NCBI GenBank assembly: GCA_036488085.1
Contig: DASXHZ010000089.1
Location: forward strand, 5,578 to 69,577
Direction: 5' to 3'
Length of the DNA stretch: 64,000 bases
DNA from: Thermoanaerobaculia bacterium
GTDB taxonomy: Bacteria > Acidobacteriota > Thermoanaerobaculia > Gp7-AA8
Part shown: positions 9,568-57,634 of the stretch, piece by piece
How positions within the stretch are numbered: the first letter of the stretch is position 1
How the letters are laid out: every line of letters begins with the position of its first letter
The notes under the pieces: model-generated
The model's database searches: none
Told to the model about the DNA's origin: nothing
Seen by the model: the letters and a program-made list of their open reading frames with translations, nothing else
Translations under genes and position numbers: made by a program

Positions 9568-10437
9568 ATGCGCGTACTGAAGTCGATCGGGGCATTCGTC
9601 CTCTACATCGTCGCGACCGAGTTCCTCCACGGCGCCCTGCAGACCGCGATCGTAAGGGGCCACCTCTACACGCCGGGCGAAGGCTTCACCGCTCCCGACT
9701 TCATCGTGAGCGACGGCATCGGCATCATCGCCGCGACACTGATCGCCTGGATCTTCGCGATCATCGAGAAGCGCCGCGTCACCGATTACGGCATTCCGCC
9801 GCGCCGCAACGCGCTCCCGCAGGCGCTCGAAGGGTTCGTGTGGGGCACCGCGGTTCCGGTCGTCGTGGCGATCATCGTGATCGCACTCGGCGGGGGAACC
9901 TACCGCGGCTTTGCGATCCACGGTGAGGCGCTGCTTCGCGGCGCCGGGATCTGGCTACTCACGATGTTCGTCCTCGGCTTTTACGAGGAGTGGGCGTTCC
10001 GCGGGTATGCCTTCGACGTTCTCAAGCGCGGCATCGGCTTCTGGCCGACGGCGATCGTGAACGCCGTCGGATTCGGCGCGCTCCATTACTTCCTGAAAGG
10101 ACCGATGGAGAGCGTGGCCGACTTCGCCGGCGTCGCGCTCATCACGCTCTTCATGTGCGTCACCATCGGCCGCACCGGCGCGCTCTGGTTCGCGATCGGC
10201 TTCCATGCCGCGTTCGACTACTTCGCCCTCATCGTGCTCGCGGCACCGAATACGGGAAACAACGGCAAGCCGATCGAGGGACACCTGCTCGACATCCGCT
10301 ACACCGGCGCAAGCTGGCTCACCGGCGGCGTCTGCGGCCTGGAGGCGAGCGTGCCGATGCTCGTCGTCGTCGTGATCGCGATCGCGCTCTACCTCATGCG
10401 AACCAGATCGACCACGAGTTCACCTGCATCTTCGTGA
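9568..10437 (+). CDS. CPBP family intramembrane metalloprotease (CAAX/Abi-like)
   Basis: multi-TM protein with EEWAFRG and FGALH motifs. Confidence 0.75.
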   Translation: MRVLKSIGAFVLYIVATEFLHGALQTAIVRGHLYTPGEGFTAPDFIVSDGIGIIAATLIAWIFAIIEKRRVTDYGIPPRRNALPQALEGFVWGTAVPVVVAIIVIALGGGTYRGFAIHGEALLRGAGIWLLTMFVLGFYEEWAFRGYAFDVLKRGIGFWPTAIVNAVGFGALHYFLKGPMESVADFAGVALITLFMCVTIGRTGALWFAIGFHAAFDYFALIVLAAPNTGNNGKPIEGHLLDIRYTGASWLTGGVCGLEASVPMLVVVVIAIALYLMRTRSTTSSPASS

Positions 10438-10987
10438 TGTGGCCGTCTTGCGGCGCGACCCAGACGGTGTAGCGGTCGCCCGTGTTCGCGTCGGTGAAGT
10501 CATAGCGGCGGAGGTTGCCCTCCATGGAGAGCTGCGGCGTCCCCTCTTTCTTCTGCGGATCGGGGAAAACAGTGAGCCGCTCCCACAGTTTCTCGAACTT
10601 CCGCGGGATGTCCTTCACCGCTTTTCCCTTGTGCGTCCAGACGATCCCGGTGGCCTTAGCCTCCGCTCTCCACTCGCCGTCGCTCGTGTCGACGATCAGT
10701 AGCTCGGCGCCAGGCGTCTTCCGGATCATGTCGCCCGCGCCGTCCGTGGACTTGAACTGGAGCATTGCCGCGATGCGGATGCAGTCGACCGCGGCAGCGT
10801 ACGAGCCATCGCCGGCGCAATGCTGCGGCGTCGACTTGAGCGGCCGCTTCACCGCCTCGGGCGTAGGAGCCGGATGACGGATAACGGATAACGGATGACG
10901 ACTCACGGGAGGTTGCGGCTTCACGGGGTGCTCGCGCCCGCACGCAACGACAACCGCAAGAGCGAGAACGACGATCGAACGGCGCAT
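10394..10987 (-). CDS. hypothetical lipoprotein
   Basis: MRRSIVVLALAVVVAC lipobox-like N-terminus; co-oriented 13 nt downstream of the PilZ gene. Confidence 0.5.
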   Translation of the reverse strand: MRRSIVVLALAVVVACGREHPVKPQPPVSRHPLSVIRHPAPTPEAVKRPLKSTPQHCAGDGSYAAAVDCIRIAAMLQFKSTDGAGDMIRKTPGAELLIVDTSDGEWRAEAKATGIVWTHKGKAVKDIPRKFEKLWERLTVFPDPQKKEGTPQLSMEGNLRRYDFTDANTGDRYTVWVAPQDGHITKMQVNSWSIWFA

Positions 10988-11000
10988 CACGCCGCCGATT

Positions 11001-11347
11001 CTAATCGCCCTCTTCGCGCGGTTTCTCGAGGACCTGTTGAATGCGTTCGGCATCCGTTTCGGAGAGGTCGCGGAACTCGACGCCGACGTCGAAGCGGCCG
11101 TCGCGCAGCTCGTTCTCGTAGATCACGCGGGCGCGTGCCGTGACGACGCCTCCCTCCACGGCGATGAGGAGCTCGAGCGTCGAGCCGACGCCGATCCGTT
11201 CGCCGCTGACGACGGAACAACCGCCGACGGCGATCGTCTTCGTTTGCGCGAACCCCTCCATCTCGTCGCCGAGGCGTTTGAGCAGCACCGAATGGTGCGA
11301 GGCAATGCGCGGAAAGCGGCGTCGCGCCGAGAGATCTTCAGCAGCCA
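11001..11347 (-). CDS. stand-alone PilZ domain protein (putative c-di-GMP receptor)
   Basis: RRRFPR (RxxxR) followed by TIAVGG (DxSxxG-like) beta-barrel motif; ATG verified at 11347. Confidence 0.6.
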
Positions 11348-11397
11348 TGTTGGAGGACCCGGGCGGATTATCGCGGATTTCGAACGGTGCGACAACG

Positions 11398-12894
11398 TCA
11401 GTGGCGGACCGCGCGGTGGCGGGTGTCGACATACGTCGCAACCGACATCCGAAAGACCACCGAGACCGACTGCCCGCTCGAGATCGGGACCGGTTGCGCC
11501 GCGTCGTAGCTCGCAGCTCCGTCATAGAACGAAGGTGCGTAGTGCTGCAACGGATCGGACGCGACGAACTTGTACGTGCCCGGCGGCAGCGCCAGAGCGA
11601 ACGCGCCGGAAAGGGATGAACCGACACGCGCGATGTGGAACCCGTTCGCGTCGTACACGTCGATGAGGATGTTGCCGAGCGGGGCGCCGCTCACGGCGTC
11701 GACCACGTTCCCATTCACGGTTCCCGCGACCTGCATGACCAGATCGAGCCCGGAGATCGTCTGCGACGGCGCAACAGTGACGCTCGACTCCGATTCGAAG
11801 CTGACAGCACCGTTCAGATACGCATTGGCGTACTGCCCGGCCGAGTCGAAGGCGATGACCTTGAACGTGCCGGGCGGCACGACCAGCGTGTATTGACCGT
11901 TGACCGCGAACGTCACCGTTCGGACGCTGCCATCAGGGTTGTACGCCGCGACGAGCACGTTCGACAGCGGCGAGCCGCCCGACGTCCGGACGGTGCCGGT
12001 GAGATGGCCCGCGCGAGTCAGCGTGGCGTTCACATTCGTCGCCGGTGCCGTGACCGCCGAGGCGGCGAGGAATGACTCGGCGTTGGGGTAGAAGACCGCG
12101 GCGTAGACGCCGTTCGGATCCTCGAACACCATCCTGTACGTCCCGCTTCGCAGCGAGAGCTGATAGTGGCCGCTCGCGTCGGTGGTCGTGCCGAAGACGA
12201 TTCCGCTGTTGCCGTAGGCATTCACGATGACGCCGTTCAGCGGCGCCCCCGTTGTATCCGTGACCGTCCCGCTGATATGCACCGCCTCGGGGAGCGCGAA
12301 GTTGGCAATCGTCGTCTGTGAGACGGTAACGCCGAGGAGATCGGCCGACGAGAACGTCTCACGGCCGTTGTAGAACGTCGTCACGTACTTCAGCGTCGTG
12401 TCGAAAGCAGCAACCGCGTACGTACCCGGAGGCACGGCGAGAACATAGTGGCCGGCGCTGTCCGTCTGCGTGAATCCGCGCCGCGTCCCGTTCGTGTTGT
12501 AAGCGGCCACCGTGATGCCCGGCAGCGGCGTTCCGCTCTGCGACGCGACCGTGCCGGCGAGATATCCCGCCTTCACGAGCGCGAAGTTGATGTTCGTCAG
12601 ATCGCCGTTGACGTTCAGCAGCGTCGAGGTCTCGAACGACTCGGCATCGGCGTAGTAGCTCGTCGCGTAGAGGGCGCTCGGGTCGTACGCCAGGAGGTGA
12701 TACGCGCCGGGATTCACCGTCAGCGTGTACGCTCCGCTCGAATTCGTGGTCGCCTGCGCCACGAAATTGCCGCTCCCGTCATACGCCGCGACGACCATTC
12801 CTGGCGCGGGCGTGACCGTGCCGCTGATCGTGGCTGCCGAAGCGGCGGTGGCGATGAGTAGGGCAAAAAAAGTGGCGAAAAGGCGCGGTTTCAT
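11398..12894 (-). CDS. secreted protein of ~8 tandem carboxypeptidase-regulatory-like (CarbopepD_reg/Cna-B type) repeats
   Basis: signal peptide; repeated ~60-aa units of the form GxVxDxxGxPLxxVxVxAYxxxG....TxxxGxYxLxVxPGxY. Confidence 0.7.
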   Translation of the reverse strand: MKPRLFATFFALLIATAASAATISGTVTPAPGMVVAAYDGSGNFVAQATTNSSGAYTLTVNPGAYHLLAYDPSALYATSYYADAESFETSTLLNVNGDLTNINFALVKAGYLAGTVASQSGTPLPGITVAAYNTNGTRRGFTQTDSAGHYVLAVPPGTYAVAAFDTTLKYVTTFYNGRETFSSADLLGVTVSQTTIANFALPEAVHISGTVTDTTGAPLNGVIVNAYGNSGIVFGTTTDASGHYQLSLRSGTYRMVFEDPNGVYAAVFYPNAESFLAASAVTAPATNVNATLTRAGHLTGTVRTSGGSPLSNVLVAAYNPDGSVRTVTFAVNGQYTLVVPPGTFKVIAFDSAGQYANAYLNGAVSFESESSVTVAPSQTISGLDLVMQVAGTVNGNVVDAVSGAPLGNILIDVYDANGFHIARVGSSLSGAFALALPPGTYKFVASDPLQHYAPSFYDGAASYDAAQPVPISSGQSVSVVFRMSVATYVDTRHRAVRH

Positions 12895-14072
12895 CGAGCT
12901 CGCGTCAATGCAATGCGAACCGTGTTCCGCATCCTCTCGCTCTGCGCCACGCTCCAGTCGAGCGGCTGTGCCGAAAGGGTCACGTCGTGCGGCTGGTTGA
13001 AGAGCACCACCGCCCGGATTCCGGCGTACTTGTCGTGCATGTCGCGGAACGCGCTGTCATACCACTGGACCGCGTCGCCGCCCGACGCCAGCGAGCCGAA
13101 CTCCGTGATCATGATCGGCTTCCCGAACTTCTGCAGCGTCGGATACGCCTTCTCGATGATCTGGTGGAACGTCCACCAACGCGACCACTGCGCGACGTCG
13201 CCGTAGTTCAGGACCCCCGTGCCGATCCAGTCGACCCACTCCGGCCCCGGGTAGTAATACTCGAACCATGGCATCGAGATGTGCGGCGACCAGACCCATA
13301 GGACATTTGTCGCGTTCATCTTCTGGAAGATGAGGTGGACGTGCTTCCACGCGGCGATGAAGTCGTCGGGACGGTTCCCGTTCTGCGGCCCCCACGGATA
13401 CCGGTACGGATCGTTCATCTCATGCGCGAAGCGGAGGAAGATCGGTTTCCGGTACTGCGCCGCACCGCGCGCCCACGCGGCGATGTAGAAGTCGTAGTCG
13501 CCGCGCGCGATGGCTGCAAGCGAGGCGTACTCGCGCTCGGCCGGCGGCGGCAGGTTCGTTCGAAGCGTCGAGTCGAAGTCGCGCACCCACGGCTCCCACG
13601 TCACCATCGGCACCGAGCCGAGGCGGTCGATCGTCTCCATCGTGCGGAGCGGGAAGTGCGCCTCGTCCGGACGGTCGCCCCACGCCTGATAGAACGAGAT
13701 GATCGGAAAGCGGTACTGCATTTGCGACTCGAGCTGTGTGAAGCCGTTGAACGACTCGGGGAAATTGCCGTCGAAAGCGCCGAACAGCAGGCGGTTCGGC
13801 TTCGCGAGCCACGCGCGCGACTCCAGCGACGGATAGAGAGTCTGCATGTCATCACGCCGCGAACCGTGCCGCGTCTTCTCGAGCGCCGACCCCTCGGTAT
13901 CCGAGATCGTCTGCCCGACCCGCGCCAGATTCTCCTCGATCGAGTCGTACCCGAGGCGGAGGTAGCGGCGGACGCCGAACTGGAACGCGACGCCGATCGC
14001 GATCAGCCAGCCGAGGGCGAAGAAGGCGACTTCGTAGCGGCGTCGGGCCGTGTGTGATCGGAGTCTTTCCAT
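12891..14072 (-). CDS. membrane-anchored clan GH-A glycoside hydrolase, GH26-like
   Basis: N-terminal TM helix; RFAHEMN (GH26 acid/base RxxHExN) and MITEFG (nucleophile) motifs; ATG at 14072 verified; 4-nt overlap with downstream gene. Confidence 0.7.
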   Translation of the reverse strand: MERLRSHTARRRYEVAFFALGWLIAIGVAFQFGVRRYLRLGYDSIEENLARVGQTISDTEGSALEKTRHGSRRDDMQTLYPSLESRAWLAKPNRLLFGAFDGNFPESFNGFTQLESQMQYRFPIISFYQAWGDRPDEAHFPLRTMETIDRLGSVPMVTWEPWVRDFDSTLRTNLPPPAEREYASLAAIARGDYDFYIAAWARGAAQYRKPIFLRFAHEMNDPYRYPWGPQNGNRPDDFIAAWKHVHLIFQKMNATNVLWVWSPHISMPWFEYYYPGPEWVDWIGTGVLNYGDVAQWSRWWTFHQIIEKAYPTLQKFGKPIMITEFGSLASGGDAVQWYDSAFRDMHDKYAGIRAVVLFNQPHDVTLSAQPLDWSVAQSERMRNTVRIALTRAR

Positions 14073-15610
14073 GCCGCGTACAAGCGTCCGCTCATGAAGA
14101 CGACGTTGACGGCGACGAAACCGATCATGCCCGCCGTCGCCTCCGTGGTGATGCGCACCTGCGCCTCCGAAAGGACGAACAGGCGTTGCATCACCGCGTA
14201 AACGACCGTCGCTGCTGAGAGCGTGACGACGCTCAGCGGAACGGCCGCTAAACGCCAGAAATTGCCCGTGCGCCGCTCCTTCGCCGTCGGGATGTACGGC
14301 ACCGCGACATTGCCGAGCGCGAGCATGAACGCCTTCAGATAGACGCTCCAGCAACCGATCTTGAGCAGCGTTCCGCGCCAGTGCCACCCGCGCTCGCGAG
14401 CTGGATCGCACATCCACCGCTGGACGAATCGATAGATCGCCACGCCGAACACGCCGACCGGCAGCGCATGGACGACGTATTCGGAAAGGAACATCGCAGC
14501 CGGCTGCAATCCGGTGAGGAGGTAGAGCAGCGGAATCGTCAGGTAGATGAGCGAGGTCAGCCCGACGAGGTAGTAGGTTCCGATCATCGCGTACGAAATC
14601 CGCTGATGGTTGGTCAGGTGCCGGAAGGCGCGCGGGTATTCGCGGAAGAGGACTTCGTACACCCCCCTCGCCCACTTCAGTTGCTGCCTGAGAAACGAGT
14701 CGAGGTCTTCCGGGACGAGGCCGCGCGCGACGACCTCCGGCACGTAAACCGACTTCCACCCTTTCGCGTGCAGCCGGATCGCCGTGACGAGATCCTCGGC
14801 CAGTCCGATTCCGTGGCCGCCGATCGAGTCGAGCGCCGCGCGCCGGAATGTGCAGTTCGCTCCGATCGCGACCGCCGTCCCAGTTCCGTGCATCCCCTGG
14901 AGGATCGGTCCGTAGAACGAGAACGTCTGCTCCGCCGCCGCGCGCGCGACGAACGAACGCGGTGCGTTGTAGTACGTCTGCGCCACCTGCACGAACCCGA
15001 CGTGCTCGTCATCGAAGTAGCCGAGCACACGGTCGAGGAACTCCGGAAACGGGACGTGGTCGGGATCGAGCACGAGGACGATCTCTTCGGTCGTCCGCTT
15101 CAGCGCCGCATTGACCTTCCCCGCCTTCGCGGCCGGTATGCCGACAAGCTCGAGGTGCACCGTGCCCATCTCCTCCGCGAGCGCCGCTATCTGCGGGTCA
15201 CGCGTGTCGTCGAGGAGATACGTCGTATGCGGATACTGGACGTCCCGCGCCGCCGCGAGCGTCCTCTCGAACATCGCCAACGGCTCCCCCGGCGCCGCCG
15301 TCGTGAAAATCGCGACTGTTCTCTGTAGCGCTGGCAATCCCGCGGGCGCCGGCTGTTCGATATGAAAAACGTTGTACCAACCCACCAGCATCCGCGAGAT
15401 GCCGTACCACGTCGCGAACGACAGCAGCACGAACAGCGGCAGGTTCCCGACGTGCTCCGCGCGGAACCACCAGAGGGCGAAGATCACTACGCTCTGCAGG
15501 CCGAGGAAAAGCAGCACGCCGAGAACCCACCGCTCCCACCGCGCGATCGGTTTCGCGCGGCGCCAGCGGAAGACCTCAGAACCGTCCTGCCACGCTCGCG
15601 TGGATCTCAT
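14003..15610 (-). CDS. processive family-2 glycosyltransferase, cellulose-synthase-like, no PilZ domain
   Basis: LLDDT, VLDPD, AEDL and QQLKW (D,D,D,QxxRW) motifs with 2 TM helices N-terminal and several C-terminal. Confidence 0.8.
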   Translation of the reverse strand: MRSTRAWQDGSEVFRWRRAKPIARWERWVLGVLLFLGLQSVVIFALWWFRAEHVGNLPLFVLLSFATWYGISRMLVGWYNVFHIEQPAPAGLPALQRTVAIFTTAAPGEPLAMFERTLAAARDVQYPHTTYLLDDTRDPQIAALAEEMGTVHLELVGIPAAKAGKVNAALKRTTEEIVLVLDPDHVPFPEFLDRVLGYFDDEHVGFVQVAQTYYNAPRSFVARAAAEQTFSFYGPILQGMHGTGTAVAIGANCTFRRAALDSIGGHGIGLAEDLVTAIRLHAKGWKSVYVPEVVARGLVPEDLDSFLRQQLKWARGVYEVLFREYPRAFRHLTNHQRISYAMIGTYYLVGLTSLIYLTIPLLYLLTGLQPAAMFLSEYVVHALPVGVFGVAIYRFVQRWMCDPARERGWHWRGTLLKIGCWSVYLKAFMLALGNVAVPYIPTAKERRTGNFWRLAAVPLSVVTLSAATVVYAVMQRLFVLSEAQVRITTEATAGMIGFVAVNVVFMSGRLYAAWKDSDHTRPDAATKSPSSPSAG

Positions 15611-16751
15611 TCGCCGTATAGAACGCGGTTCGCGACCGCTCCGCCGAGACGTTCAATATCGCGCCACTCGCGAGCGGGAACGCCGTCGATACCGCCACGC
15701 GCCATGGGTGGAAGGTACCGGCGACGCGATCGTATGCGACACCGGCGTCGACGTGTAGGCCGAGACGCTTCCACGTCGTTGCGGCGATCGCACGCCCTTC
15801 GCGCTCGCCGATCGGCGTCCAGTAGGGATCGTACGTGCCGTTCACGAAGTGCGACTCCTTCGTATCGCGGTACCCCGCCGAGGCGCCAAGGAGGAACGAG
15901 CGCACCGGAACCAGCCAATAGCCGTCCACGTTGTTGCCGCTGTTCTGGTCGAAATACCGGAAGTGCGACGCCGAAAATGCAGCATTTCCGTTCGGCGTCC
16001 ACCGGAGCGCCGTCACGTCCGCGAACGGATGCGAACGCACTGCCGTGGCGCTGCGAAGGAGCGCGCGCCGGTCGAACGACAGCGACAGCCTGCCGCGCGT
16101 GACCGTCGCATCGGGCATGATCTGCGATCGGCCGTCCGGAAACCGCGTCCAACCGAGCCCCGCGGCGACCGTCGTTCGCGAATGCGGAAGCACCGCGGAG
16201 ACGCCGCCGCGAACCGTCTCCGAGTCGTCGTCGCCGAGGTTTGTGTTCATCCGGAGGGCGGAGCCGGAGAGCGACCACTTCGTGAGCGGATCGAAGAGGC
16301 CGTAGACCATTGCAGAGGGCATGAACAGCCGCGCCGGCTGGTCGTCGTCGATGAAGCCGCCGTCGACGACATACCCCGGCCGCGACTGCGCACGGATCTC
16401 CTCGAGGCCGCGTCTCGCGTCGTTGTCCTTCGGGTCGCGCGCGACGAGCGCCGCGAACAGCCGCTCCGCCTCGCGGTACCGGCCTTCCCACAGGTACACG
16501 CGCGCCAGCGCCAGTTGCGCGTCGCGTGACTCGGGCGCCTGCCGCACCGCCTCCAGCGCCACCCGCTCCGCGCCGACGAGATCGTTCTTCTGGGCGAGCT
16601 CCGTCACGCGGTCGAGCACCTGCGCCGTCTGGAGGAAGATGAACAGAACCGCAACCACGAGCGGCATTATGAACGGCGCGCCCCACGTCAGCACGATACG
16701 AACGCGCTCGCGAAAGGCGCCCTGGGCGCGCCTACGGCGCACAGCGCTCAC
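15576..16751 (-). CDS. TPR-containing outer-membrane beta-barrel exporter (PgaA/BcsC-like)
   Basis: N-terminal hydrophobic segment, TPR-like helical region, then alternating-hydrophobic beta-strand region ending in aromatic residue (..SVAGRF). Confidence 0.55.
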   Translation of the reverse strand: MSAVRRRRAQGAFRERVRIVLTWGAPFIMPLVVAVLFIFLQTAQVLDRVTELAQKNDLVGAERVALEAVRQAPESRDAQLALARVYLWEGRYREAERLFAALVARDPKDNDARRGLEEIRAQSRPGYVVDGGFIDDDQPARLFMPSAMVYGLFDPLTKWSLSGSALRMNTNLGDDDSETVRGGVSAVLPHSRTTVAAGLGWTRFPDGRSQIMPDATVTRGRLSLSFDRRALLRSATAVRSHPFADVTALRWTPNGNAAFSASHFRYFDQNSGNNVDGYWLVPVRSFLLGASAGYRDTKESHFVNGTYDPYWTPIGEREGRAIAATTWKRLGLHVDAGVAYDRVAGTFHPWRVAVSTAFPLASGAILNVSAERSRTAFYTANEIHASVAGRF

Positions 16752-17049
16752 AACCTCCCTACATCACGCCTTCGGCGGCGTCATCGATGGATCGTGCGGA
16801 GCGCCGGCGCGTTCGTCGTCGTGGCCAGCGTCGTTGCCGGTGCCGTACTCGGAGTGGGCGACTGAGGGTCCTGAGCCGTCTTCTTACGGCGCGAGAAGCT
16901 CCTCAACCGCTTCACTTCCTGAATGTGCGGCACCAGGACCGCGTTGTCCGGATTCCGTATGAGCTGCGTCCCGATTGCGACCGCCTGCGCCGTAATGAAC
17001 GCGAGCTTCTGACGGCGCAACGTCATACAAGCGGAGTGAATATACGGCC

Positions 17050-17535
17050 CCGCGATACGGCGAGGGCGCCCCTCGCAGCGGCAACGGAGCCCCTCGTTGC
17101 GGCCGGGTCGCCACTCAAGGTCGTCAACCCACCCCCTCGACGTGGCGAGAGTGCCCCTCGCAGTGGTGCGCGGCCTCTCGACGCCGGCGGTACGCCCTCT
17201 CCAAGGGGAAAGGCGGCCCCTCCAAGGGGGAGCGCGGTCGCTTCCTGGTGAAGATGTTGCCCCTCGCAGTGACCGCGTTGCCGCTTCCGGTGGCCACGCG
17301 GCCCCTCGCGGTGGACGCTGTCCCGCTCGATGCGATTCCGCGGCCCCTCGTCGTGGACGTCGTACTCACTCGCGGGGGCCACGGTCCCCCTCGGAGCGGC
17401 CGCGGTTTCCCCTCGCGGGGCCACCTACCCTCACGGAGGGTCCGGCGTCTCACTCGCGGGGGCCACGATCCCGTTCGCGGCGGCCGCCGTCCTACGCGCA
17501 GCGGCAACGATCCCGCTCGCAAGAGCCGCCGGCGC
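17050..17535. repeat. degenerate 21-bp tandem repeat array (~23 units, core CCCCTCGCGG)
   Basis: CCTCG-type cores recur at 17071, 17092, 17135, 17156, 17217, 17262, 17304, 17325, 17346, 17389, 17411, 17473... with 21-22 bp spacing. Confidence 0.7.
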
Positions 17536-17672
17536 ACTTCTGACGGTACGGTCTTCCCCCGATGTGATTGCGCGCCCGCTGCTGTTGGCCGTGCCGGCGC
17601 CGCGGGCTAGACCTGCACCGCATCCCGTTCGGGTCGTATAGGGCTCGAGCGCTCCATGACCGCGCTGCACCA

Positions 17673-18170
17673 TTACCGGCGACGCGGGATATTCGCCAGC
17701 ATCGAGCCGTCGCCGACCTTCCCGCGTGCGACGACGGTGAGCTCGCCGTTCGGCTCGAGCACGACGGCGGCGACGTCACCGATCGAGCCGAGGCCTTGCC
17801 GGCGAATGGCGTGATTGACCTCGTCTTCGCTGAACGCCTCTTGCAGCATCATGTCGTGCAGGTACTGGCCATCCTCGACGAGCATCACCGCCGTCGAGGT
17901 TGCCACGTGCTCGAATCTGCGCGACCGCGCCGCGATGTAGGCGACGAGGAGCTCGAGGCTGACCGGAACGGCGAGCGCGATCACCGCCTGGCCCGCCGAG
18001 ATGTCCTTCGAAGTAACGATCGTGGCCATGGTCGAACCGAGCGCGATGACGATGACGAAATCGAACACGTGCAACGTGGCGAGCGTTCGCTTTCCGGCCA
18101 GTCGGAGAACGATCGAGAGGCCGACATAGACAGTCACGGCCGCGACAAACGTGTGAAGGAGCGGTCCCAT
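17673..18170 (-). CDS. DUF421/YetF-like membrane protein
   Basis: 165-aa C-terminal part of long ORF; ATG verified at 18170; TM helices plus conserved C-terminal soluble domain. Confidence 0.55.
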   Translation of the reverse strand: MGPLLHTFVAAVTVYVGLSIVLRLAGKRTLATLHVFDFVIVIALGSTMATIVTSKDISAGQAVIALAVPVSLELLVAYIAARSRRFEHVATSTAVMLVEDGQYLHDMMLQEAFSEDEVNHAIRRQGLGSIGDVAAVVLEPNGELTVVARGKVGDGSMLANIPRRR

Positions 18171-18223
18171 CCGCCTTTCATCTCCAGCGTAAGCCGTGCC
18201 ACCGATCCGGCGACGTCCTCCCT

Positions 18224-20254
18224 CTACGCCTGAACGCCGTTCCGCACGATCCTCGCGACGTCGTCGACCAGATCGGCGGGGTCGACGGGCTTGGTGAGGT
18301 AGCCGTTGAACATGACGTCGCTGGCCTGGGCGGCGGCGGGGAAGGCGCTGAGGATGATCAGCTTCACGCCATCGAGCTCCGGACGCGCGCGCATCTCGCG
18401 GGAGAAGGCATAGCCGTCCATCTCCGGCATGGCGATGTCGGTGATGACGGCGTCGGGGCGTATCCGGGTCAGTTCGGCGAGGGCGAGCGGTGCAGACTCG
18501 ACCGCCGTCACGTCGGCGCCGGCCTGTCTCAGGATCGCGGAGATGAGTCCGCGCGCCTCGACATCGTCGTCTAGCAGCAGCAGTGAGATGCCGCGGAGTC
18601 GGTCGGGATTGATCGTGCGGATCGGCTCTTCGGCGCTTTGCGTGTGCGGCGCCTCGTTGGAGATGGTTGCGACGGCGGCGACCGGAAGGGTGACGGTGAA
18701 CGTTGCGCCGCTTCCGCGACCCTCGCTTTCGGCGGTGATGCTTCCGCCGTGCGCCTCGACGATGTAGCGGACGATCGAGAGGCCGAGTCCGAGGCCGCCG
18801 TGGACGCGCGTCTGCGGGTTCTCCGCCTGGCGGAACGGCTCGAAGACGTGCGGGAGGAACTGCAGGTCGATCCCTTCGCCGGTGTCGCAGACCTCGATCT
18901 CGAGGTGCGACGACGTCCGCCGGGCGCTGACGTGGATGCTGCCGCCCTTCGGCGTGAATTTCACGGCATTGGTGAGCAGGTTCCACATCACCTGCTGCAA
19001 CCGGGTCGGGTCGGCGACGATCCACCCGAGGCCGGCGGAGAAGGACGTTTCGATGCGAATGCCACGGGCGCCCGCGCTGGGACGCACCGCCTCGAGCGAT
19101 GAGTTCAGGATGTTCTCGACATTCAGCCGCTCGCGCGTCAGCCGCATCTTGCCGGAGACGATGCGCGAGACGTCGAGCACGTCGTCGATGAGGCGGGCCT
19201 GGAGCTGTGCGCCGCGCGCGATCGACGAGACCGCTTCCCGGAACATCGGATCGGCCGGCGACATGGTCGGCAGCAGACGCGCCCACCCGAGGATCGCGGT
19301 CATGGGCGTCCGCAGCTCGTGCGACAACGTCATGAGGAACTCGTCTTTCGCCCGGTTCGCCTCCTGGGCGACGCGGAACGACGCCTCGGCACGCCGGCGT
19401 TCTTCTTCTGCCGCGAGCCGCGCCTCACGCTGCTGCATCAGCGCACGCTGCGTCTCCTCGGCCTGCTTGCGGTCGGTGATGTCGCGCGTCACTTTCGCGA
19501 ATCCGCGCAGGACGCCCTGCTCGTCGTGGACGGCGGTGATGACGACGTTCGCCCAGAAGCGGCTGCCGTCCTTGCGGAGACGCCATCCCTCTTCTTCGTA
19601 CACGCCGTACTCACGCGCGATCTCGAGCTCCCGCGGCGGCTTCCCGCTCCGGATGTCCTCCTCGGGATAGAAGATCGAGAAGTGTTTCCCGATGATCTCG
19701 TCGGACGTGTACCCCTTGATGCGGTGCGCCCCCGCGTTCCACGACGCGATGTGGCCTCCCGTATCGAGCATGAAGATGGCGTAGTCCTGGACGTTCGCGA
19801 CCAGGAGCCGGAACATCTCCTCACTCTCCCGCAGCCGCTCGTCCGCCGCGCGGCGCAGCGTCAGGTCGCGCGTGACTTTGGCGAAGCCGCGCAGCTTGCC
19901 GTCCGGGGTACGGAGTCCGGTGATGACGGTGTTGACCCAGAAACGCGTTCCATCGCTGCGGAGGCGCCACCCTTCGTCCTCGATGCGCCCCTCGCGGTCG
20001 GCGACCTCCAGCTCGTGCTGCGGCTTCCGGTTGTCGAGGTCTTCCTTCGAATAGAAGATCTGGAAGTTCCGGCCGATCACATCGTCGGCCGCGTAGCCGA
20101 AGATGCGCGCGGCACCGCGATTCCAGGTGCGGATCTCCCCATGAATTCCCATGAGGAAGATCGCGTAGTCCTGCACCTCGTCGATGAGGAGTGCCAGCTC
20201 GTCGCTCGTGGGCACGGGCACATCGAGCCTACGTTTGTTAGGTGTGTCAGCCAT
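18224..20254 (-). CDS. hybrid sensor histidine kinase (2x PAS, HisKA, HATPase, C-terminal receiver)
   Basis: two PAS repeats (DYAIFLM..., DYAIFMLD...), SHELRTP H-box, N/G-boxes, receiver with DIAMPEMDG and conserved D/K. Confidence 0.85.
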   Translation of the reverse strand: MADTPNKRRLDVPVPTSDELALLIDEVQDYAIFLMGIHGEIRTWNRGAARIFGYAADDVIGRNFQIFYSKEDLDNRKPQHELEVADREGRIEDEGWRLRSDGTRFWVNTVITGLRTPDGKLRGFAKVTRDLTLRRAADERLRESEEMFRLLVANVQDYAIFMLDTGGHIASWNAGAHRIKGYTSDEIIGKHFSIFYPEEDIRSGKPPRELEIAREYGVYEEEGWRLRKDGSRFWANVVITAVHDEQGVLRGFAKVTRDITDRKQAEETQRALMQQREARLAAEEERRRAEASFRVAQEANRAKDEFLMTLSHELRTPMTAILGWARLLPTMSPADPMFREAVSSIARGAQLQARLIDDVLDVSRIVSGKMRLTRERLNVENILNSSLEAVRPSAGARGIRIETSFSAGLGWIVADPTRLQQVMWNLLTNAVKFTPKGGSIHVSARRTSSHLEIEVCDTGEGIDLQFLPHVFEPFRQAENPQTRVHGGLGLGLSIVRYIVEAHGGSITAESEGRGSGATFTVTLPVAAVATISNEAPHTQSAEEPIRTINPDRLRGISLLLLDDDVEARGLISAILRQAGADVTAVESAPLALAELTRIRPDAVITDIAMPEMDGYAFSREMRARPELDGVKLIILSAFPAAAQASDVMFNGYLTKPVDPADLVDDVARIVRNGVQA

Positions 20255-48814: not shown

Positions 48815-49135
48815 CTCGGCCCCCGTCATCCTGAAAGGTCGTGAAGAAATTTCCCCATCCGTCATCCTGAGTCGCCGAAGCCGCGAAGCGGCGCAGGACG
48901 GCGAAGGAACTCAAAATTCGCAGCTTGTGGCTCACGCGGCGCATTCTGAGATCCTTCGCTGCGCTACGCGGCGGAGCCGCTCCGCCAAGCTCAGGATGAC
49001 GGAAACGAGATTTCTTCACAGCCTCTGAGCCGCCGAAGCGAAGGACGGCGAAGGATCTCAAAATGCGAGGCCTGAGCCGCGCGCAACGCATCTTGAGTTC
49101 CTTCGCTGCGCTTCGCCAGCTCAGGATGACGGTGG
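48815..49135. repeat. family C inverted-repeat elements (GTCATCCTGAG...CGAAGGA type), two to three copies
   Basis: CGTCATCCTGAGTCGCCGAAGC..GCGAAGGAACTCAAAAT and reverse-complement partners; translate to recurrent ..SFAALR.. in shadow ORFs. Confidence 0.55.
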
Positions 49136-49537
49136 GGCGCTGGCCTTCTTCTTCTTTGCCGGCGCCTTCTTCTTCACCGCCTTGTCGTTCTTTTTCGGGG
49201 CCTTGTCGTTCTTCTTCGCGGCCTTCTTGTTCTTCTTCAGCGTCTTCGCCGATTTCTTCAGCACCTTCTTCGCCGACTTCACCGCCTTCTTCCCCACTTT
49301 GACGCCGATGGGGAGGAGGGCGGAGGCGGCGATCACTTCGCCGACCGAGGAGGAAACGCGCGTCACGAAGGCATCCTTCTGTTCGGTGCTCATCGCGCGC
49401 CAGTGCGCGACGAGCGTTTGGAGCGCGTCGGGCTCGGCGCCCTCGGCAGGCGGCGCGGCGCCATCCGCCAGGTGGTCGAGCGCGCGTATCCCGGTGTCGT
49501 GAATGTACGACGCGAGTTTTTTCGGCAAAGCATCCAT
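49121..49537 (-). CDS. lysine-rich histone-H1/AlgP-like protein
   Basis: 138-aa ORF 16 nt downstream of ppk1; C-terminal KKAVKSAKKVLKKSAKTLKKNKKAAKK repeats; overlaps family C repeat. Confidence 0.4.
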   Translation of the reverse strand: MDALPKKLASYIHDTGIRALDHLADGAAPPAEGAEPDALQTLVAHWRAMSTEQKDAFVTRVSSSVGEVIAASALLPIGVKVGKKAVKSAKKVLKKSAKTLKKNKKAAKKNDKAPKKNDKAVKKKAPAKKKKASAPPSS

Positions 49538-55406: not shown

Positions 55407-55434
55407 GACTAGTGACTAGTGACTAGTGACTAGT
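55407..55434. repeat. (GACTAGT)x4 perfect heptamer tandem, each unit containing the palindrome ACTAGT
   Basis: read directly; lies 22 nt upstream of aquaporin ATG and encodes the last codons and stop of the EAL gene. Confidence 0.8.
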
Positions 55435-56234
55435 CGCATCACCCGTGTACTGACCGCGCGCGATAGCAGTTGCGGCCGCGGCATCGGCCGGCCGAAAAGG
55501 AATCCCTGCGCCCATTCGACGCCGCAGGCGACGAGCGCCTCCGCTTCCTGCCACGTCTCGACCCCCTCGGCGATCAGCACCGCGCCGATGTTCCGCGCGA
55601 ACTCGGTCATCGACCGGACGATCCGCTGTTTATACGGCTCGCGGTCGACGCGGCGCGTCACCGCCATGTCGAGCTTGAGGTAGTGCGGCACGCACGAGAT
55701 CAGCGTCCGCAGACCGCTGTTGCCGGCGCCGAAGTCGTCGAGCGCGATGTCGAACCCCTGGCCGGCGTAGTGGCGCACCAGCGCCTCGAACTTGTCGTAG
55801 TCGCCGATCGACGCGCGCTCGGTGATCTCGATGACGATCTGCGACGGCGCGATTCCATGCTGCTCGAGCACCGCGCGTGTGAAGCCGCTCACGAAGCGCG
55901 GATCGTCCAGCACGTCGGGGCTGACGTTGAGGAAATACGTGTACTGGCGCAGCGTCTTCGGCAGCGCGGCGATGGCGCCGAGCCCCGCGATCCGGCAGGC
56001 GCGCTCCAGCTCCCACGTCGCGCCGATCTCGCGGGCCCGGTCGAACAGCCGGCTCGGCGCCGTGAACGGCTCGGGACCGCGCGAGAGAACTTCGAAGCCG
56101 GCCGCGACGCCGTGGCGGAGGTCGACGATCGCCTGAAACATCGGCGTGATCAGCGACGCGTCGATGCCGGCGAGCAGCGAGTCGAGGGCAAAGTCGGATT
56201 CCTGTGCGAGAGCGGACATGACGAAGGCCTCCAT
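55416..56234 (-). CDS. stand-alone EAL domain protein (putative c-di-GMP phosphodiesterase)
   Basis: EIT.ER (EVIEITER-like), DDFGAG, and KLD loop motifs. Confidence 0.8.
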   Translation of the reverse strand: MEAFVMSALAQESDFALDSLLAGIDASLITPMFQAIVDLRHGVAAGFEVLSRGPEPFTAPSRLFDRAREIGATWELERACRIAGLGAIAALPKTLRQYTYFLNVSPDVLDDPRFVSGFTRAVLEQHGIAPSQIVIEITERASIGDYDKFEALVRHYAGQGFDIALDDFGAGNSGLRTLISCVPHYLKLDMAVTRRVDREPYKQRIVRSMTEFARNIGAVLIAEGVETWQEAEALVACGVEWAQGFLFGRPMPRPQLLSRAVSTRVMRLVTSH

Positions 56235-56345: not shown

Positions 56346-56700
56346 CGGCCCCACACACTACTCCTCCGTGCGCTTGCGCCGCTTCTTCTGCCGCTCGAGC
56401 TTCCGGAGGCGCTGCATCTCCTCGTAAATGGGGATCAACTGCTCGTTCTCGGGTAAGCGCACCAGGTGCTTGGTCACGGCGAAGGCGTGGTCAGCGATCG
56501 GCTCTCAGCCGACCCAGGGCCGGCTGAGAGCCGGCCCCACACACTACTCCTCCGTGCGCTTGCGCCGCTTCTTCTGCCGCTCGAGCTTGCGGAGACGCTG
56601 CATCTCCTCGTAAATGGGGATCAGTATCTCGTTCTCGGGTAAGCGCACGAGATGCTTCGTCACGGCGAAGGCGTGGTCGGCGATCAACCCGAGCTTGTAG
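56305..56700. repeat. ~195-bp direct tandem duplication including gene 3' end plus REP hairpin
   Basis: 56310-56498 vs 56499-56690 near-identical; creates a duplicated C-terminal fragment (..ADHAFAVTKHLVRLPENE(Q/I)LIPIYEEMQRLRKLERQKKRRKRTEE). Confidence 0.7.
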
Positions 56701-57011
56701 CGGCGCATGAGGTTGGCGCTGCTGACGCCGTTGAAGATCTCCCGAAGATCGGCTTCTACCGCCGCCCACCGGGTGGTCAGCATGATGAGATCTGTGACTT
56801 CATCGGACGACAGCCCGATGGCGGCGGAAACCCTGTCCGACGTTCCGATGGCACTCATCGCTGCGGACACCGTCTCAGGCGAGTGCCTGATGCGATCGCG
56901 AAGGTCGCGCCGCTGCTGCGCCGTCATCGGCGTGTAATCATCTTCGATGGTAGAGCGCACGGCGCGCAACTGCTGCTGAACGTCTTCCGGCGTCGATTTC
57001 TGCTTCGGCAT
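56544..57011 (-). CDS. hypothetical protein with possible PhoU-like repeat (LIADHAFAV)
   Basis: 155-aa ORF from MPKQKS..; ORF stays open a further 123 codons upstream through the 21-bp repeat array, so true start uncertain. Confidence 0.4.
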   Translation of the reverse strand: MPKQKSTPEDVQQQLRAVRSTIEDDYTPMTAQQRRDLRDRIRHSPETVSAAMSAIGTSDRVSAAIGLSSDEVTDLIMLTTRWAAVEADLREIFNGVSSANLMRRYKLGLIADHAFAVTKHLVRLPENEILIPIYEEMQRLRKLERQKKRRKRTEE

Positions 57012-57017
57012 CACTTG

Positions 57018-57360
57018 CTCTCCCCAGGCGAGCAATTCTACGCTCAAAGTGAGCAGTTGTCCGCTCCAGGAGGCCAAATGATCGCTCTGCACGAGCATTT
57101 CCACGCTGGCAACGCACAATTGTACTCTCCTTACAAGCAGATCCCCGCTCCTAGCAAACATTTGTGCTCTTCTAGCGAATACTTGCTCGCTTAATACTGC
57201 CAAATGTTCGCTTCGAGAGTACGATTGATCTCTCGCGGCGAGCAATTGCGCGCTCACAGCGAACAAGTGCTGGCTTGATACGAACAATCTCTCGCCACGA
57301 GCGGACAGTTTCTCGCTCCGAGCGGACAGATGCTCGCTCGGGGCGAACAGTTGATACTCG
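57018..57360. repeat. 21-bp x 16 tandem repeat, consensus GARCARWTGNTCGCTCNNAGC, ~50% GC
   Basis: units aligned by eye; conserved CA..T....CGCT core; in-frame with downstream ORF giving SxxLxxR heptads. Confidence 0.8.
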
Positions 57361-57634
57361 CCGCCCGCGCGGAGCGCCATTCAGCCGCACAACCGTCACA
57401 GGCACTTCCCTTGCTCAACCGTTACGCCGGAGGTAACTGAAGTGCTTCTGACTCTCGCAATCATTCTCCTGATCGCGTGGCTTCTCGGGCTCGTGGCGTT
57501 TCACGTAACGGCGTGGTTCATTCACATCCTCATCGTCCTCGCCGTCATCATCTTCATTCTCCACTTCGTCCGCGGGCGTCCCGCGGTCTGACCCGGTTGC
57601 AGGGGTGTGCGCTTTGTGCTACAAAGCGCACACC

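Follow-up and report, generated by a model that had tools for sequence, protein, structure and literature searches.

A PilZ-less BcsA-like synthase, a GH26 hydrolase and a TPR-barrel porin in a probable, widely conserved polysaccharide secretion module of Acidobacteriota and other phyla

The hydrolases of the named exopolysaccharide systems belong to different families: GH8 in Bcs, GH153 in Pga, GH166 in Pel and GH39 in Psl. In the Bcs system, the synthase BcsA has two extra N-terminal TM helices and the porin BcsC contains well above two TPRs. The Pel synthase, PelF, is a GT4 and not a GT2 enzyme, and Pel depends on c-di-GMP through a separate receptor, PelD, which gives a precedent for regulation in trans. 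According to the available portions of two papers on the rhizobial Bgs system, its operon, bgsBA, is bicistronic and the synthesis depends on TolC (PMC13438883), while the C-terminal domain of BgsA binds c-di-GMP (PMC5567048). Literature searches found no paper describing a PilZ-less BcsA-like GT2, a GH26 enzyme and a TPR-barrel porin in combination without BcsB or an MFP, in agreement with the initial annotation of the locus analysed here, which had matched it to no named system.

The window, i.e. the whole analysed stretch of 64,000 nucleotides from a Thermoanaerobaculia bacterium, contains six ORFs at positions 10394–16751, all in one orientation on the minus strand, as had been reported, and a profile search of each gene returned Pfam matches for the glycosyltransferase, GH26, PilZ, CarboxypepD and TPR domains named initially. 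The host is a soil acidobacterium, and the genomes concerned are, every one, MAGs of uncultured organisms. The six genes are as follows:

Gene A, 15576..16742, minus strand, predicted outer-membrane exporter (Pfam TPR_19 and TPR_14; predicted structure)
Gene B, 14003..15610, minus strand, predicted inner-membrane processive GT2 synthase-translocase, BcsA-like (Pfam Glyco_trans_2_3 and Cellulose_synt)
Gene C, 12891..14072, minus strand, predicted lichenase-type GH26 hydrolase, periplasmic and anchored in the membrane (Pfam Glyco_hydro_26)
Gene D, 11398..12894, minus strand, predicted secreted repeat protein (Pfam CarboxypepD_reg, 7.2e-45)
Gene E, 11001..11348, minus strand, stand-alone PilZ-domain protein of 115 aa (Pfam PilZ, 6.1e-12)
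Gene F, 10394..10987, minus strand, predicted lipoprotein of 197 aa (lipobox, no family match)

The reading frames overlapped by 35 nt at the A/B junction, by 70 nt at B/C and by 4 nt (ATGA) at C/D, and gaps of 49 and 13 nt followed at D/E and E/F, respectively; of the junctions given earlier, only the 50-nt gap needed correction. We consider it probable (roughly 0.7) that genes A–C, joined by D in the loci of the Acidobacteriota type, form a self-contained polysaccharide secretion module from which E and F are separate. A synthase-dependent exopolysaccharide system with unusual parts, as originally proposed, was supported by a PilZ-less BcsA-like GT2, a GH26 enzyme and a TPR-barrel porin, and the Pfam and NCBIfam searches bore out that no BcsB-like or MFP-like co-polymerase gene is present among the six.

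The ORF of gene A spans 15576–16751, with alternative starts at 16751 and 16667; the GTG at 16742 is a more likely start than 16751, giving a product of 388 aa that is 100% identical to a protein (P0241) from an NCBI Thermoanaerobaculia MAG. The product starts with a signal/anchor helix at its N-terminus, followed by two TPR motifs (TPR_19 match of 9.8e-9) and a 16-stranded beta-barrel with the C-terminal end SVAGRF. Its AlphaFold model, built with 20 homologues, had a pLDDT of 86 and 16 strands, and the best structural matches of the barrel were BcsC, PgaA and PelB, with BcsC in first place; a TPR-barrel porin of the BcsC/PgaA/PelB class is supported by this model.

Gene B matched Glyco_trans_2_3 (1.3e-21) and Cellulose_synt (1.1e-14) in Pfam and scored 171 bits with the NCBIfam CelA profile (cutoff 699) and 54.5 bits with PgaC/IcaA (cutoff 422). 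BcsA was found both by sequence search of the PDB (4.4e-39) and as the best Foldseek match (4p00, E 9.6e-24, TM 0.73), followed by plant CesA and HAS, with the predicted model (pLDDT 82, pTM 0.84), which shows the full BcsA-type channel architecture; in sequence and fold, the protein was far nearer to BcsA/CelA than to PgaC, NodC, HAS or chitin synthases. Its motifs include DD (134–135), DPD (182–184), AED (271–273) replacing TED, QQLKW (309–313) and a gating-loop-like YIPTAK (439–444), and the catalytic aspartates, QQLKW and the YxPTxK motif did not vary among the 68 family members compared. The QxxRW signature ascribed to the synthase earlier is in fact QxxKW, reading Q309-Q-L-K312-W, with K in all 68 members. 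As expected from the initial annotation, a PilZ domain was detected neither with Pfam nor with NCBIfam profiles; the C-terminal tail is short, poorly predicted and missing from many homologues.

Gene C, whose start at ATG 14072 is fixed by the conserved residues Y13..L23 of its N-terminal TM helix, encodes a catalytic domain behind this helix and passed the Glyco_hydro_26 threshold (4.7e-10, 39.8 bits against a cutoff of 20.2). The anticipated RxxHExN and ITEFG motifs were present as RFAHEMN, with the acid/base Glu218 in HEMN, and as ITEFG with the nucleophile Glu324, both glutamates being invariant in 18 homologues. In the PDB, the best match was CtLic26A/Endoglucanase H (2.6e-24, 34% identity over 181 residues, half of the length of the gene C product), while a beta-1,3-xylanase (4e-7) and mannanases (1.6e-3 or weaker) matched less well.

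A GT2 sequence does not reveal which sugar the enzyme uses. The most likely product would be a beta-glucan that is cellulose-like or has mixed beta-1,3/1,4 linkages, a glucan being favored because the GH26 protein is nearest to the lichenase CtLic26A and the GT2 is nearest to BcsA; from the "mannan or glucan" suggested originally, the glucan gained ground and the mannan lost it, with mannanase matches of only about 2e-3. With an identity to CtLic26A of 34% over half of the GH26 protein, mannan, xylan-like and other beta-polymers would also be compatible. One alternative, which we regard as unlikely, is a misleading resemblance to lichenase and a product other than glucan, such as beta-1,4-mannan or glucomannan, a beta-1,3-xylan-like or an amino-sugar polymer. 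GH26 splits into lichenase, xylanase and mannanase branches (PMC6556568) and its characterised members are mostly mannanases (PMC6556568; PMC13390465), the next-best solved relative is the xylanase, and the low CelA score of the GT2 and its unusual QQLKW and AED motifs would also fit such a product; against it stand the CtLic26A match, about 20 orders of magnitude above that of any mannanase, and the proximity of the synthase to BcsA/CelA.

A total of 381 species genomes had a relative of the GH26 protein, and the 80 best GH26 loci repeated the A-B-C order, so that the arrangement of A–D exceeds chance. In 81 of the 83 loci examined, the GT2 gene lay directly upstream of the GH26 gene, and 69 loci had the TPR-barrel gene upstream, the remainder being mostly cut contigs. 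The loci belong to Acidobacteriota (Thermoanaerobaculia, Holophagales and Vicinamibacterales), Gemmatimonadota and some Bacteroidota, the order with overlapping reading frames being kept across at least three phyla. Gene D starts with a Sec signal peptide (AASA/A), followed by five tandem transthyretin-like CarboxypepD_reg repeats of approximately 93 aa (five Pfam stretches, with boundaries placed by eye), instead of the eight or so counted previously. In 60 of the 83 loci, a homologue followed the GH26 gene at a downstream distance of approximately 5 kb or less, and none did so in L067–L083; homologues were absent from the loci of Gemmatimonadota, Saprospirales and Vicinamibacterales, and D is separated from A–C by a gene on the opposite strand in many loci of Thermoanaerobaculia. 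This distribution speaks against the co-polymerase slot once assigned to gene D, which is probably an accessory partner of the module solely in the Acidobacteriota-type loci.

Another alternative, which we find doubtful, is the initially proposed single coupled operon of six genes, in which the PilZ protein would bind c-di-GMP and gate the GT2 in trans, in place of the C-terminal PilZ that BcsA has, and the lipoprotein would be an accessory of the periplasm or outer membrane, comparable to PelC or AlgK. The common strand, the short gaps and the lack of a terminator-like site between D and F in a scan of the region are in its favor, as are the first PilZ motif, kept as RRRFPR (RRxxxR), and the gating-loop-like motif of the GT2 as a possible target; co-transcription and a functional link in the lineage of the window are possible. 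The D/E gap contains the sole sigma-70-like promoter match of the region, weak evidence that points the other way. Gene E scored 34 bits with TIGR02266 (cutoff 68.7), and its second c-di-GMP motif reads T-I-A-V-G-G and not D/NxSxxG, D/N and S being replaced by T and A; the D/N and S residues were mostly missing across 133 subfamily members. Gene F had no match in Pfam, NCBIfam or PDB, and its product is a predicted lipoprotein, as in the initial parts list, owing to a lipobox-like V-V-A-C in its N-terminus, MRRSIVVLALAVVVAC, as read from the sequence. The six-gene order was kept, with PilZ proteins at least 80% identical, in L001/L084, L005, L086 and L088. These are close relatives (approximately 83% nucleotide identity to L001), and the linkage of PilZ with the module is uninformative there because the flanking housekeeping genes are also syntenic. 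PilZ relatives at 50–58% identity were located in loci where no A–D gene lies within 8 kb. Among these loci, L095 retains the NDH2 neighbor and has the PilZ-lipoprotein pair without A–D; a pair without A–D may also occur in L090 and L093, whose flanking sequence is too short for a full judgement. The PilZ relatives at 50–58% identity were paired either with the lipoprotein or with an Lnb_N-domain protein, and the remaining loci examined showed no PilZ gene at up to 10 kb from the module. The membership of PilZ in the module is, therefore, doubtful, and gene F looks to travel with the PilZ gene and not with the polysaccharide genes: the order that is conserved is A-B-C(-D), PilZ and the lipoprotein following the module in the nearest relatives of the window only, and the functional unit of six genes is not supported.

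Control of the module family by c-di-GMP is nevertheless plausible because most relatives carry a dedicated GGDEF-EAL gene: 38 related loci include a HAMP-PAS-GGDEF-EAL gene, and its GGDEF, EALxR and DDFGTG motifs were intact in 34 of 34; in L001, an RR-GGDEF gene lies just upstream of the module. The lineage of the window is without the usual GGDEF-EAL gene and has the PilZ-lipoprotein pair in about its place, which would suit the six-gene operon. Since the 64-kb window has no GGDEF gene, the family-level argument is not directly transferable to it. A stand-alone EAL protein does exist at 55416–56234 (Pfam EAL, 1.2e-46), as noted before, but nothing ties it to the circuit of the operon, and the gating role attributed to PilZ fits poorly with a second motif that is non-canonical subfamily-wide and with most family loci having no PilZ nearby.

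A chance neighborhood, in which the GT2 would make a glycan of the periplasm or membrane, OPG-like or a glycolipid, and the GH26 enzyme and the barrel would serve unrelated uptake or degradation, is very improbable: gene A does have a very short TPR part of two repeats, unlike BcsC, PgaA and PelB, but the overlapping A-B-C order in at least three phyla, the barrel matching three exopolysaccharide export porins specifically and the BcsA-type channel all speak against it.

In the self-contained module preferred here, the GT2 in the inner membrane would polymerise a nucleotide sugar (UDP-glucose is the most likely one) and thread the chain through its own channel of approximately six TM helices, with neither a BcsB-type partner required nor a built-in PilZ brake. 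The GH26 enzyme, whose single N-terminal helix would anchor it in the inner membrane and place the lichenase-like barrel in the periplasm, may trim or release the chain, a task that BcsZ, PgaB, PelA and AlgL have in the named systems, and the TPR-barrel protein would take it over and pass it through the 16-strand outer-membrane pore. The five beta-sandwich repeats of gene D most likely bind the polymer in the periplasm or matrix. PilZ and the lipoprotein would be a separately conserved pair adjoining the module in a narrow lineage only, possibly co-transcribed here.

Compared to the known systems, the module has most in common with Bcs: a processive inner-membrane GT2 closest to BcsA in sequence and fold with the gating-loop-like motif kept, an operon-encoded periplasmic endo-hydrolase, and a TPR and 16-strand barrel porin with BcsC as the best structural match. 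It differs from Bcs in the absence of BcsB, of the PilZ domain in the synthase and, in the predicted model, of the additional pair of N-terminal TM helices that BcsA has, in having QQLKW and AED instead of QxxRW and TED, a lichenase-like GH26 instead of a GH8 hydrolase and two TPRs where BcsC has many more, in its C-A-Z-like gene order with the porin first, and in a synthase far under the CelA equivalog cutoff. PgaABCD, producing poly-beta-1,6-GlcNAc, is also headed by the porin gene, but the module GT2 is far below the PgaC/IcaA cutoff, and the module has a hydrolase of another family and neither a deacetylase domain nor PgaD. With Pel it shares a periplasmic hydrolase (the PelA hydrolase/deacetylase), of another family, while the synthase class is different (GT4 versus GT2) and PelC-, PelD-, PelE- and PelG-like genes are lacking. 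The rhizobial BgsBA, as far as the available parts of the sources go, resembles the module in a BcsA-like PilZ-less GT2, a beta-glucan product and c-di-GMP control (PMC5567048, PMC13438883), and a mixed-linkage beta-glucan would suit a lichenase-type enzyme; in these parts, BgsA has a C-terminal c-di-GMP domain in contrast to the short, poorly predicted tail of the module GT2 (PMC5567048), TolC stands in contrast to the TPR-barrel porin, and no hydrolase gene is named in the two-gene operon (PMC13438883). The locus would represent a compact, widely conserved polymer machine of three to four genes outside the named systems, most likely producing slime of the beta-glucan type.

Six minus-strand genes follow each other closely between 10394 and 16751 of the window, which has a G+C content of 63–70%. 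Starting from the upstream end, they are:

15576–16751, minus: gene A, TPR-barrel porin; likelier start GTG 16742
14003–15610, minus: gene B, GT2 synthase; ORF with Pfam GT2/Cellulose_synt
12891–14072, minus: gene C, GH26 hydrolase; ORF with Pfam GH26
11398–12894, minus: gene D, repeat protein; ORF with Pfam CarboxypepD_reg
11001–11348, minus: gene E, stand-alone PilZ protein (115 aa); ORF with Pfam PilZ
10394–10987, minus: gene F, predicted lipoprotein (197 aa); ORF without a Pfam match

Genes A and B overlap by 35 nt, B and C by 70 nt and C and D by 4 nt; gaps of 49 and 13 nt separate D from E and E from F. Read from GTG 16742, gene A encodes 388 aa with 100% identity to P0241, a protein of an NCBI Thermoanaerobaculia MAG, which makes this start more likely than 16751, and ATG 14072 was fixed as the start of gene C because the residues of its N-terminal membrane helix are conserved in 18 homologues. 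The domains named in the initial annotation were all recovered by Pfam (TPR; GT2/Cellulose_synt; GH26; CarboxypepD_reg; PilZ). The N-terminus of gene F, MRRSIVVLALAVVVAC, is lipobox-like as read from the sequence. At its 3' end this gene overlaps by 44 nt (10394–10437) with the 3' end of a convergent Rce1-like/CPBP intramembrane protease gene (9568–10437, plus strand).

A structure model was needed to recognize the barrel of gene A, because its profile reached only TPR proteins among the PDB sequences, i.e., the TPR part alone was detected. The model (20 homologues, pLDDT 86) combined an N-terminal helix with two TPR motifs and a barrel of 16 strands, and its top structural matches, BcsC, PgaA and PelB, are the outer-membrane pores of named synthase-dependent systems. 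Gene A provides the outer-membrane TPR-containing β-barrel porin which is generic to this class. The membrane-integrated processive glycosyltransferase, also forming the translocation channel, is probably provided by gene B, judging from its motifs and model. The best match of the latter was BcsA both in the PDB sequence search (4.4e-39, residues 34–379) and in the fold search (4p00, E 9.6e-24, TM 0.73), followed in the fold search by plant CesA and hyaluronan synthases. The model shows the GT domain, two TM helices at the N-terminus, an interface helix bearing the QQLKW signature and, toward the C-terminus, four more helices in the membrane or at its interface. This signature had been given as QxxRW in the initial annotation, but the lysine in it, K312, is shared by all 68 family members. 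AED is present where TED is expected, and the aspartates DD134-135 and D182xD184 are invariant. A cytosolic loop of the model holds VPYIPTAKER, with Y439, T442 and K444 invariant, which we take to be comparable to the FxVTxK gating loop of the BcsA and CesA structures. Neither Pfam nor the structure model revealed a PilZ domain in gene B, and its C-terminal tail was short, poorly predicted and missing from many homologues.

The assignment of gene C to GH26 was confirmed by PF02156 (39.8 bits; cutoff 20.2), with a match covering only profile positions 139–244 of 311; the same family was carried by 120 of 120 gene C homologues among the matches listed. Its closest solved relative was the lichenase CtLic26A (Endoglucanase H) of Clostridium thermocellum (2.6e-24, 34% identity over 181 residues), and the other PDB matches included a β-1,3-xylanase (4e-7) and mannanases (1.6e-3 or weaker). 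H217-E218-M-N220 and E324 of ITEFG align with HEAN and AEF of CtLic26A, the two catalytic glutamates (acid/base E218, nucleophile E324) being invariant in 18 homologues. GH26 comprises separate branches of mannanases, xylanases and lichenases (PMC6556568), and by its sequence gene C appears to be nearer to the CtLic26A-like lichenase branch than to the other two. One TM helix is located at the N-terminus, ahead of the GH26 domain, and the positive-inside character of this terminus would orient the enzyme toward the periplasm, where it would represent the polymer-modifying or polymer-cleaving enzyme generic to operons of this class. Gene D encodes, after a Sec signal peptide, five repeats of ~93 aa, corresponding to five CarboxypepD_reg stretches in Pfam (repeat boundaries and signal peptide were read from the sequence), rather than the approximately eight repeats initially estimated.

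The GT2 and the GH26 proteins each had well over 100 homologues at 63–90% identity, those with names all coming from Thermoanaerobaculia or Acidobacteriota MAGs. A scan with the GH26 alignment, using one genome per species, found relatives in 381 genomes. Gene order was compared in the best 80 of these 381 together with loci L001–L003, and the key counts were obtained by phmmer against raw ORFs.

Gene order around the GH26 gene in the 83 loci compared
GT2 immediately upstream of the GH26 gene: 81/83
TPR-barrel gene upstream of GT2: 69/83 (most others are contigs that end there)
CarboxypepD-repeat gene downstream of the GH26 gene: 60/83
PilZ and lipoprotein genes with the module: 2/83 (L001, L005)

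The conserved core among the relatives consists of the porin, GT2 and GH26 genes only, and this triad was present in MAGs of Thermoanaerobaculia, Holophagales, Vicinamibacterales, Gemmatimonadota and Saprospirales. Loci L067–L083 yielded no repeat protein; most of them are from Gemmatimonadota, and Saprospirales, Bacteroidota, Vicinamibacterales and Longimicrobiales contribute one MAG each. The module is real and conserved, a variant among the synthase-dependent exopolysaccharide machines that apparently has no name.

All six genes had initially been regarded as a single operon with the PilZ protein as its c-di-GMP gate, which included two genes too many: genes E and F are linked with the module only in the closest relatives. 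The PilZ domain of gene E itself is well above the cutoff (PF07238, 46.2 against 22.5 bits). R10 and R14 of its RRRFPR sequence (RxxxR motif) are conserved in 124 and 125 of the 133 aligned members, the exceptions being eight N-terminally truncated sequences and one with K, while its second c-di-GMP motif reads T38-I-A40-V-G-G and departs from D/NxSxxG. When all representatives of 50%-identity clusters were searched, 271 relatives of this PilZ protein appeared at E ≤ 1e-3. In the subfamily RR[FY]PR is near-invariant and the second motif has the form T-x-x-h-[G/S/A]-x-G-G-C-x-F: the S position is occupied by G in 96, S in 29 and A in 8 of the 133, and the D/N position by D or N in only 28. Since the second motif is mostly non-canonical, c-di-GMP binding is possible in this subfamily but should not be assumed.

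A scan of metagenomes with the PilZ alignment produced 15 loci. The six-gene order was kept in those with a PilZ identity of at least 80% and enough flank (L084, which is the same as L001; L086; and L088), and these loci are so closely related that synteny extends to the CPBP and NDH2 genes on the flanks. At 50–58% PilZ identity no homologues of genes A–D were found within 8 kb in the loci with long flanks (L091, L094, L095, L096, L098). In the distant loci the PilZ gene is followed either by a lipoprotein gene (L090, L093 and L095, the last retaining its NDH2 neighbor) or by a gene for an Lnb_N-domain protein (L091, L094, L096). The latter partner is a periplasmic protein of 271 aa (L091:8336–9148, L094:1848–2663, L096:8339–9151). 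This suggests that the small PilZ protein works with changing envelope partners. The lack of genes A–D in the distant loci indicates that the PilZ-lipoprotein pair has its own history and that the module stands beside it only in one narrow lineage. PDB sequence searches with the PilZ protein and the lipoprotein gave no usable match. The sole sigma-70-like match within 10200–17800 falls in the D/E gap, in which no terminator-like site was found; with promoter and terminator counts no higher than in shuffled sequence, this background-level scan gives only a hint. The regulatory weight initially placed on the PilZ protein is not supported: the comparative data do not tie it to the system, and its second motif is non-canonical.

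Systems of this class are typically activated after translation through a c-di-GMP receptor, and a possible c-di-GMP connection of another kind was present in 38 loci (L002, L017, L018 and 35 more), where an opposite-strand gene of ~848 aa with the recorded Pfam architecture HAMP-PAS-GGDEF-EAL (for example, L002:12937–15432, minus) lies between the GH26 and repeat genes or just past the repeat gene. Its GGDEF, EALxR and DDFGTG motifs were intact in 34 of 34 full-length copies. The gene is missing from the window's own lineage. In L001, an 83%-identical relative, genes for a PAS kinase, RR-GGDEF, RR and a Ser/Thr kinase are located upstream of the operon; the window lacks the RR-GGDEF, RR and kinase genes and has in that place a DUF421 gene and ~920 nt without an ORF. 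The DUF421/YetF-like small membrane protein gene (17673–18170, minus) is upstream on the operon strand and not syntenic with L001, and the next gene, a hybrid PAS-PAS-HisKA-HATPase-receiver kinase on the same strand (18224–20254, minus), is syntenic. The window contains one EAL gene (55416–56234), and tblastn found no GGDEF or additional PilZ genes in it; the proposed link of this EAL gene to the operon has nothing that connects the two. An Rfam scan of 10000–18400 with E up to 1 gave no match, so that neither a c-di-GMP riboswitch nor any other known RNA is indicated upstream. In one Thermoanaerobaculia subclade (L002, L018, L021, L022, L025, L026, L039, L041, L046, L050, L051, L055) genes for FHA, trypsin-FHA, PP2C and Ser/Thr kinase proteins are located upstream of the module and genes for an FHA-GAF-guanylate cyclase and an S26 signal peptidase downstream; these neighbors hint at phospho-signaling and cyclic-nucleotide control of the module.

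The region upstream of gene A (300–770 nt) also includes an array of ~22 units with a 21-nt period at 17057–17520 on the minus strand, with a strand-specific (C)GAGGGG(C) core and a lag-21 autocorrelation of 0.51; it holds 9 of the 22 minus-strand CGAGGGG sites of the window. No spanning ORF and no Rfam family was found for it, and L001 has its RR-GGDEF, RR and Ser/Thr kinase genes in this position. The array might be what remains of a heptad-repeat gene, or else a DNA or RNA element with a regulatory or structural role that precedes the operon. Between the array and gene A lies an 81-aa ORF (16781–17026, minus) with coding-like GC3 (0.80); it matched no Pfam family, and no homologue of it turned up among the related loci examined. 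Two more 21-nt periodic stretches have differing units: the one at 49015–49414, with the unit TCTTCTTC..GCCTTC, resembles a Lys/Ala-rich seven-residue coding repeat read in antisense, and the one at 56953–57436 is located inside an ORF (56544–57380, minus) encoding a heptad S-x-x-L repeat protein. Comparable lag-21 arrays were present in L002, L010, L044, L045 and L048.

From the observed folds, motifs and gene order we infer a scheme in which the gene B product would synthesize a β-linked glycan and move it across the inner membrane, the gene C product, tethered in the inner membrane and facing the periplasm, would cleave or trim the chain, the gene A product would export the polymer through the outer membrane and the secreted gene D product would bind it. 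With a BcsA-like GT2 and a lichenase-like GH26 paired in one module, the best guess for the product is a β-glucan, either cellulose-like or mixed β-1,3/1,4. A more far-reaching reading, to which we assign a probability of roughly 0.3, is that the triad represents an unnamed phylum-spanning synthase system of Acidobacteriota, Gemmatimonadota and some Bacteroidota, producing a mixed-linkage or otherwise non-cellulosic β-glucan without BcsB or PilZ, and that its dedicated GGDEF-EAL control acts via a receptor site of a new kind on the GT2 or on the CarboxypepD-repeat partner, the window's lineage having recruited a non-canonical PilZ protein instead.

Acidobacteriota and Gemmatimonadota rank with the most abundant bacteria of soils, nearly all of them uncultured, and their matrix polymers influence soil aggregation and carbon retention; to our knowledge, these polymers are almost unknown at the gene level. 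Being compact (three core genes) and conserved (GH26 relatives in 381 species genomes), the module is a tractable candidate for heterologous expression. It would reveal how a BcsA-type synthase operates without BcsB or a PilZ brake and what role a lichenase-type GH26 has within a biosynthetic machine. It could also tell whether bacteria beyond rhizobia and Firmicutes make mixed-linkage β-glucans. The analysis also corrects the tempting reading of the adjacent PilZ protein as the switch.

Literature searches turned up no account of this set of parts, neither for GH26 in combination with synthase-dependent systems, with cellulose synthase or with PilZ, nor for Thermoanaerobaculia in combination with cellulose synthase; the single GH26 match concerned a Wzx/Wzy cluster in Actinoplanes. 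A census of biofilm operons makes no mention of Acidobacteria or Gemmatimonadetes and presumes that a functional cellulose locus has bcsA and bcsB (PMC7112194). BcsA-type bacterial synthases of mixed-linkage glucan are known, namely BgsA (PMC5567048) and RiGT2 (PMC10374906). The Bcs system has a BcsA equivalog with a C-terminal PilZ domain, a BcsB co-polymerase and the GH8 hydrolase BcsZ, whereas gene B lacks PilZ and is below the cutoffs of its nearest NCBIfam family, TIGR03030 CelA (171 against 699 bits), and of PRK11498 (138 against 992), Pfam and NCBIfam searches show no BcsB match among the six proteins, and gene C is a GH26. PgaABCD has a PgaC/IcaA-type synthase, the deacetylase PgaB and PgaD; gene B scores only 54.5 bits against the 422-bit cutoff of TIGR03937, with PgaC, NodC and others much further away than CelA, and the six proteins include no deacetylase domain and no PgaD. 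Pel-specific parts are likewise absent from the six genes. The initial annotation, which had recognized the system class and most of the parts, was right that no named system matched. The module works like the Bcs/Pga/Pel class and is a member of none of them: a new system, widespread in soil phyla that are important and uncultured, yet assembled from familiar modules.
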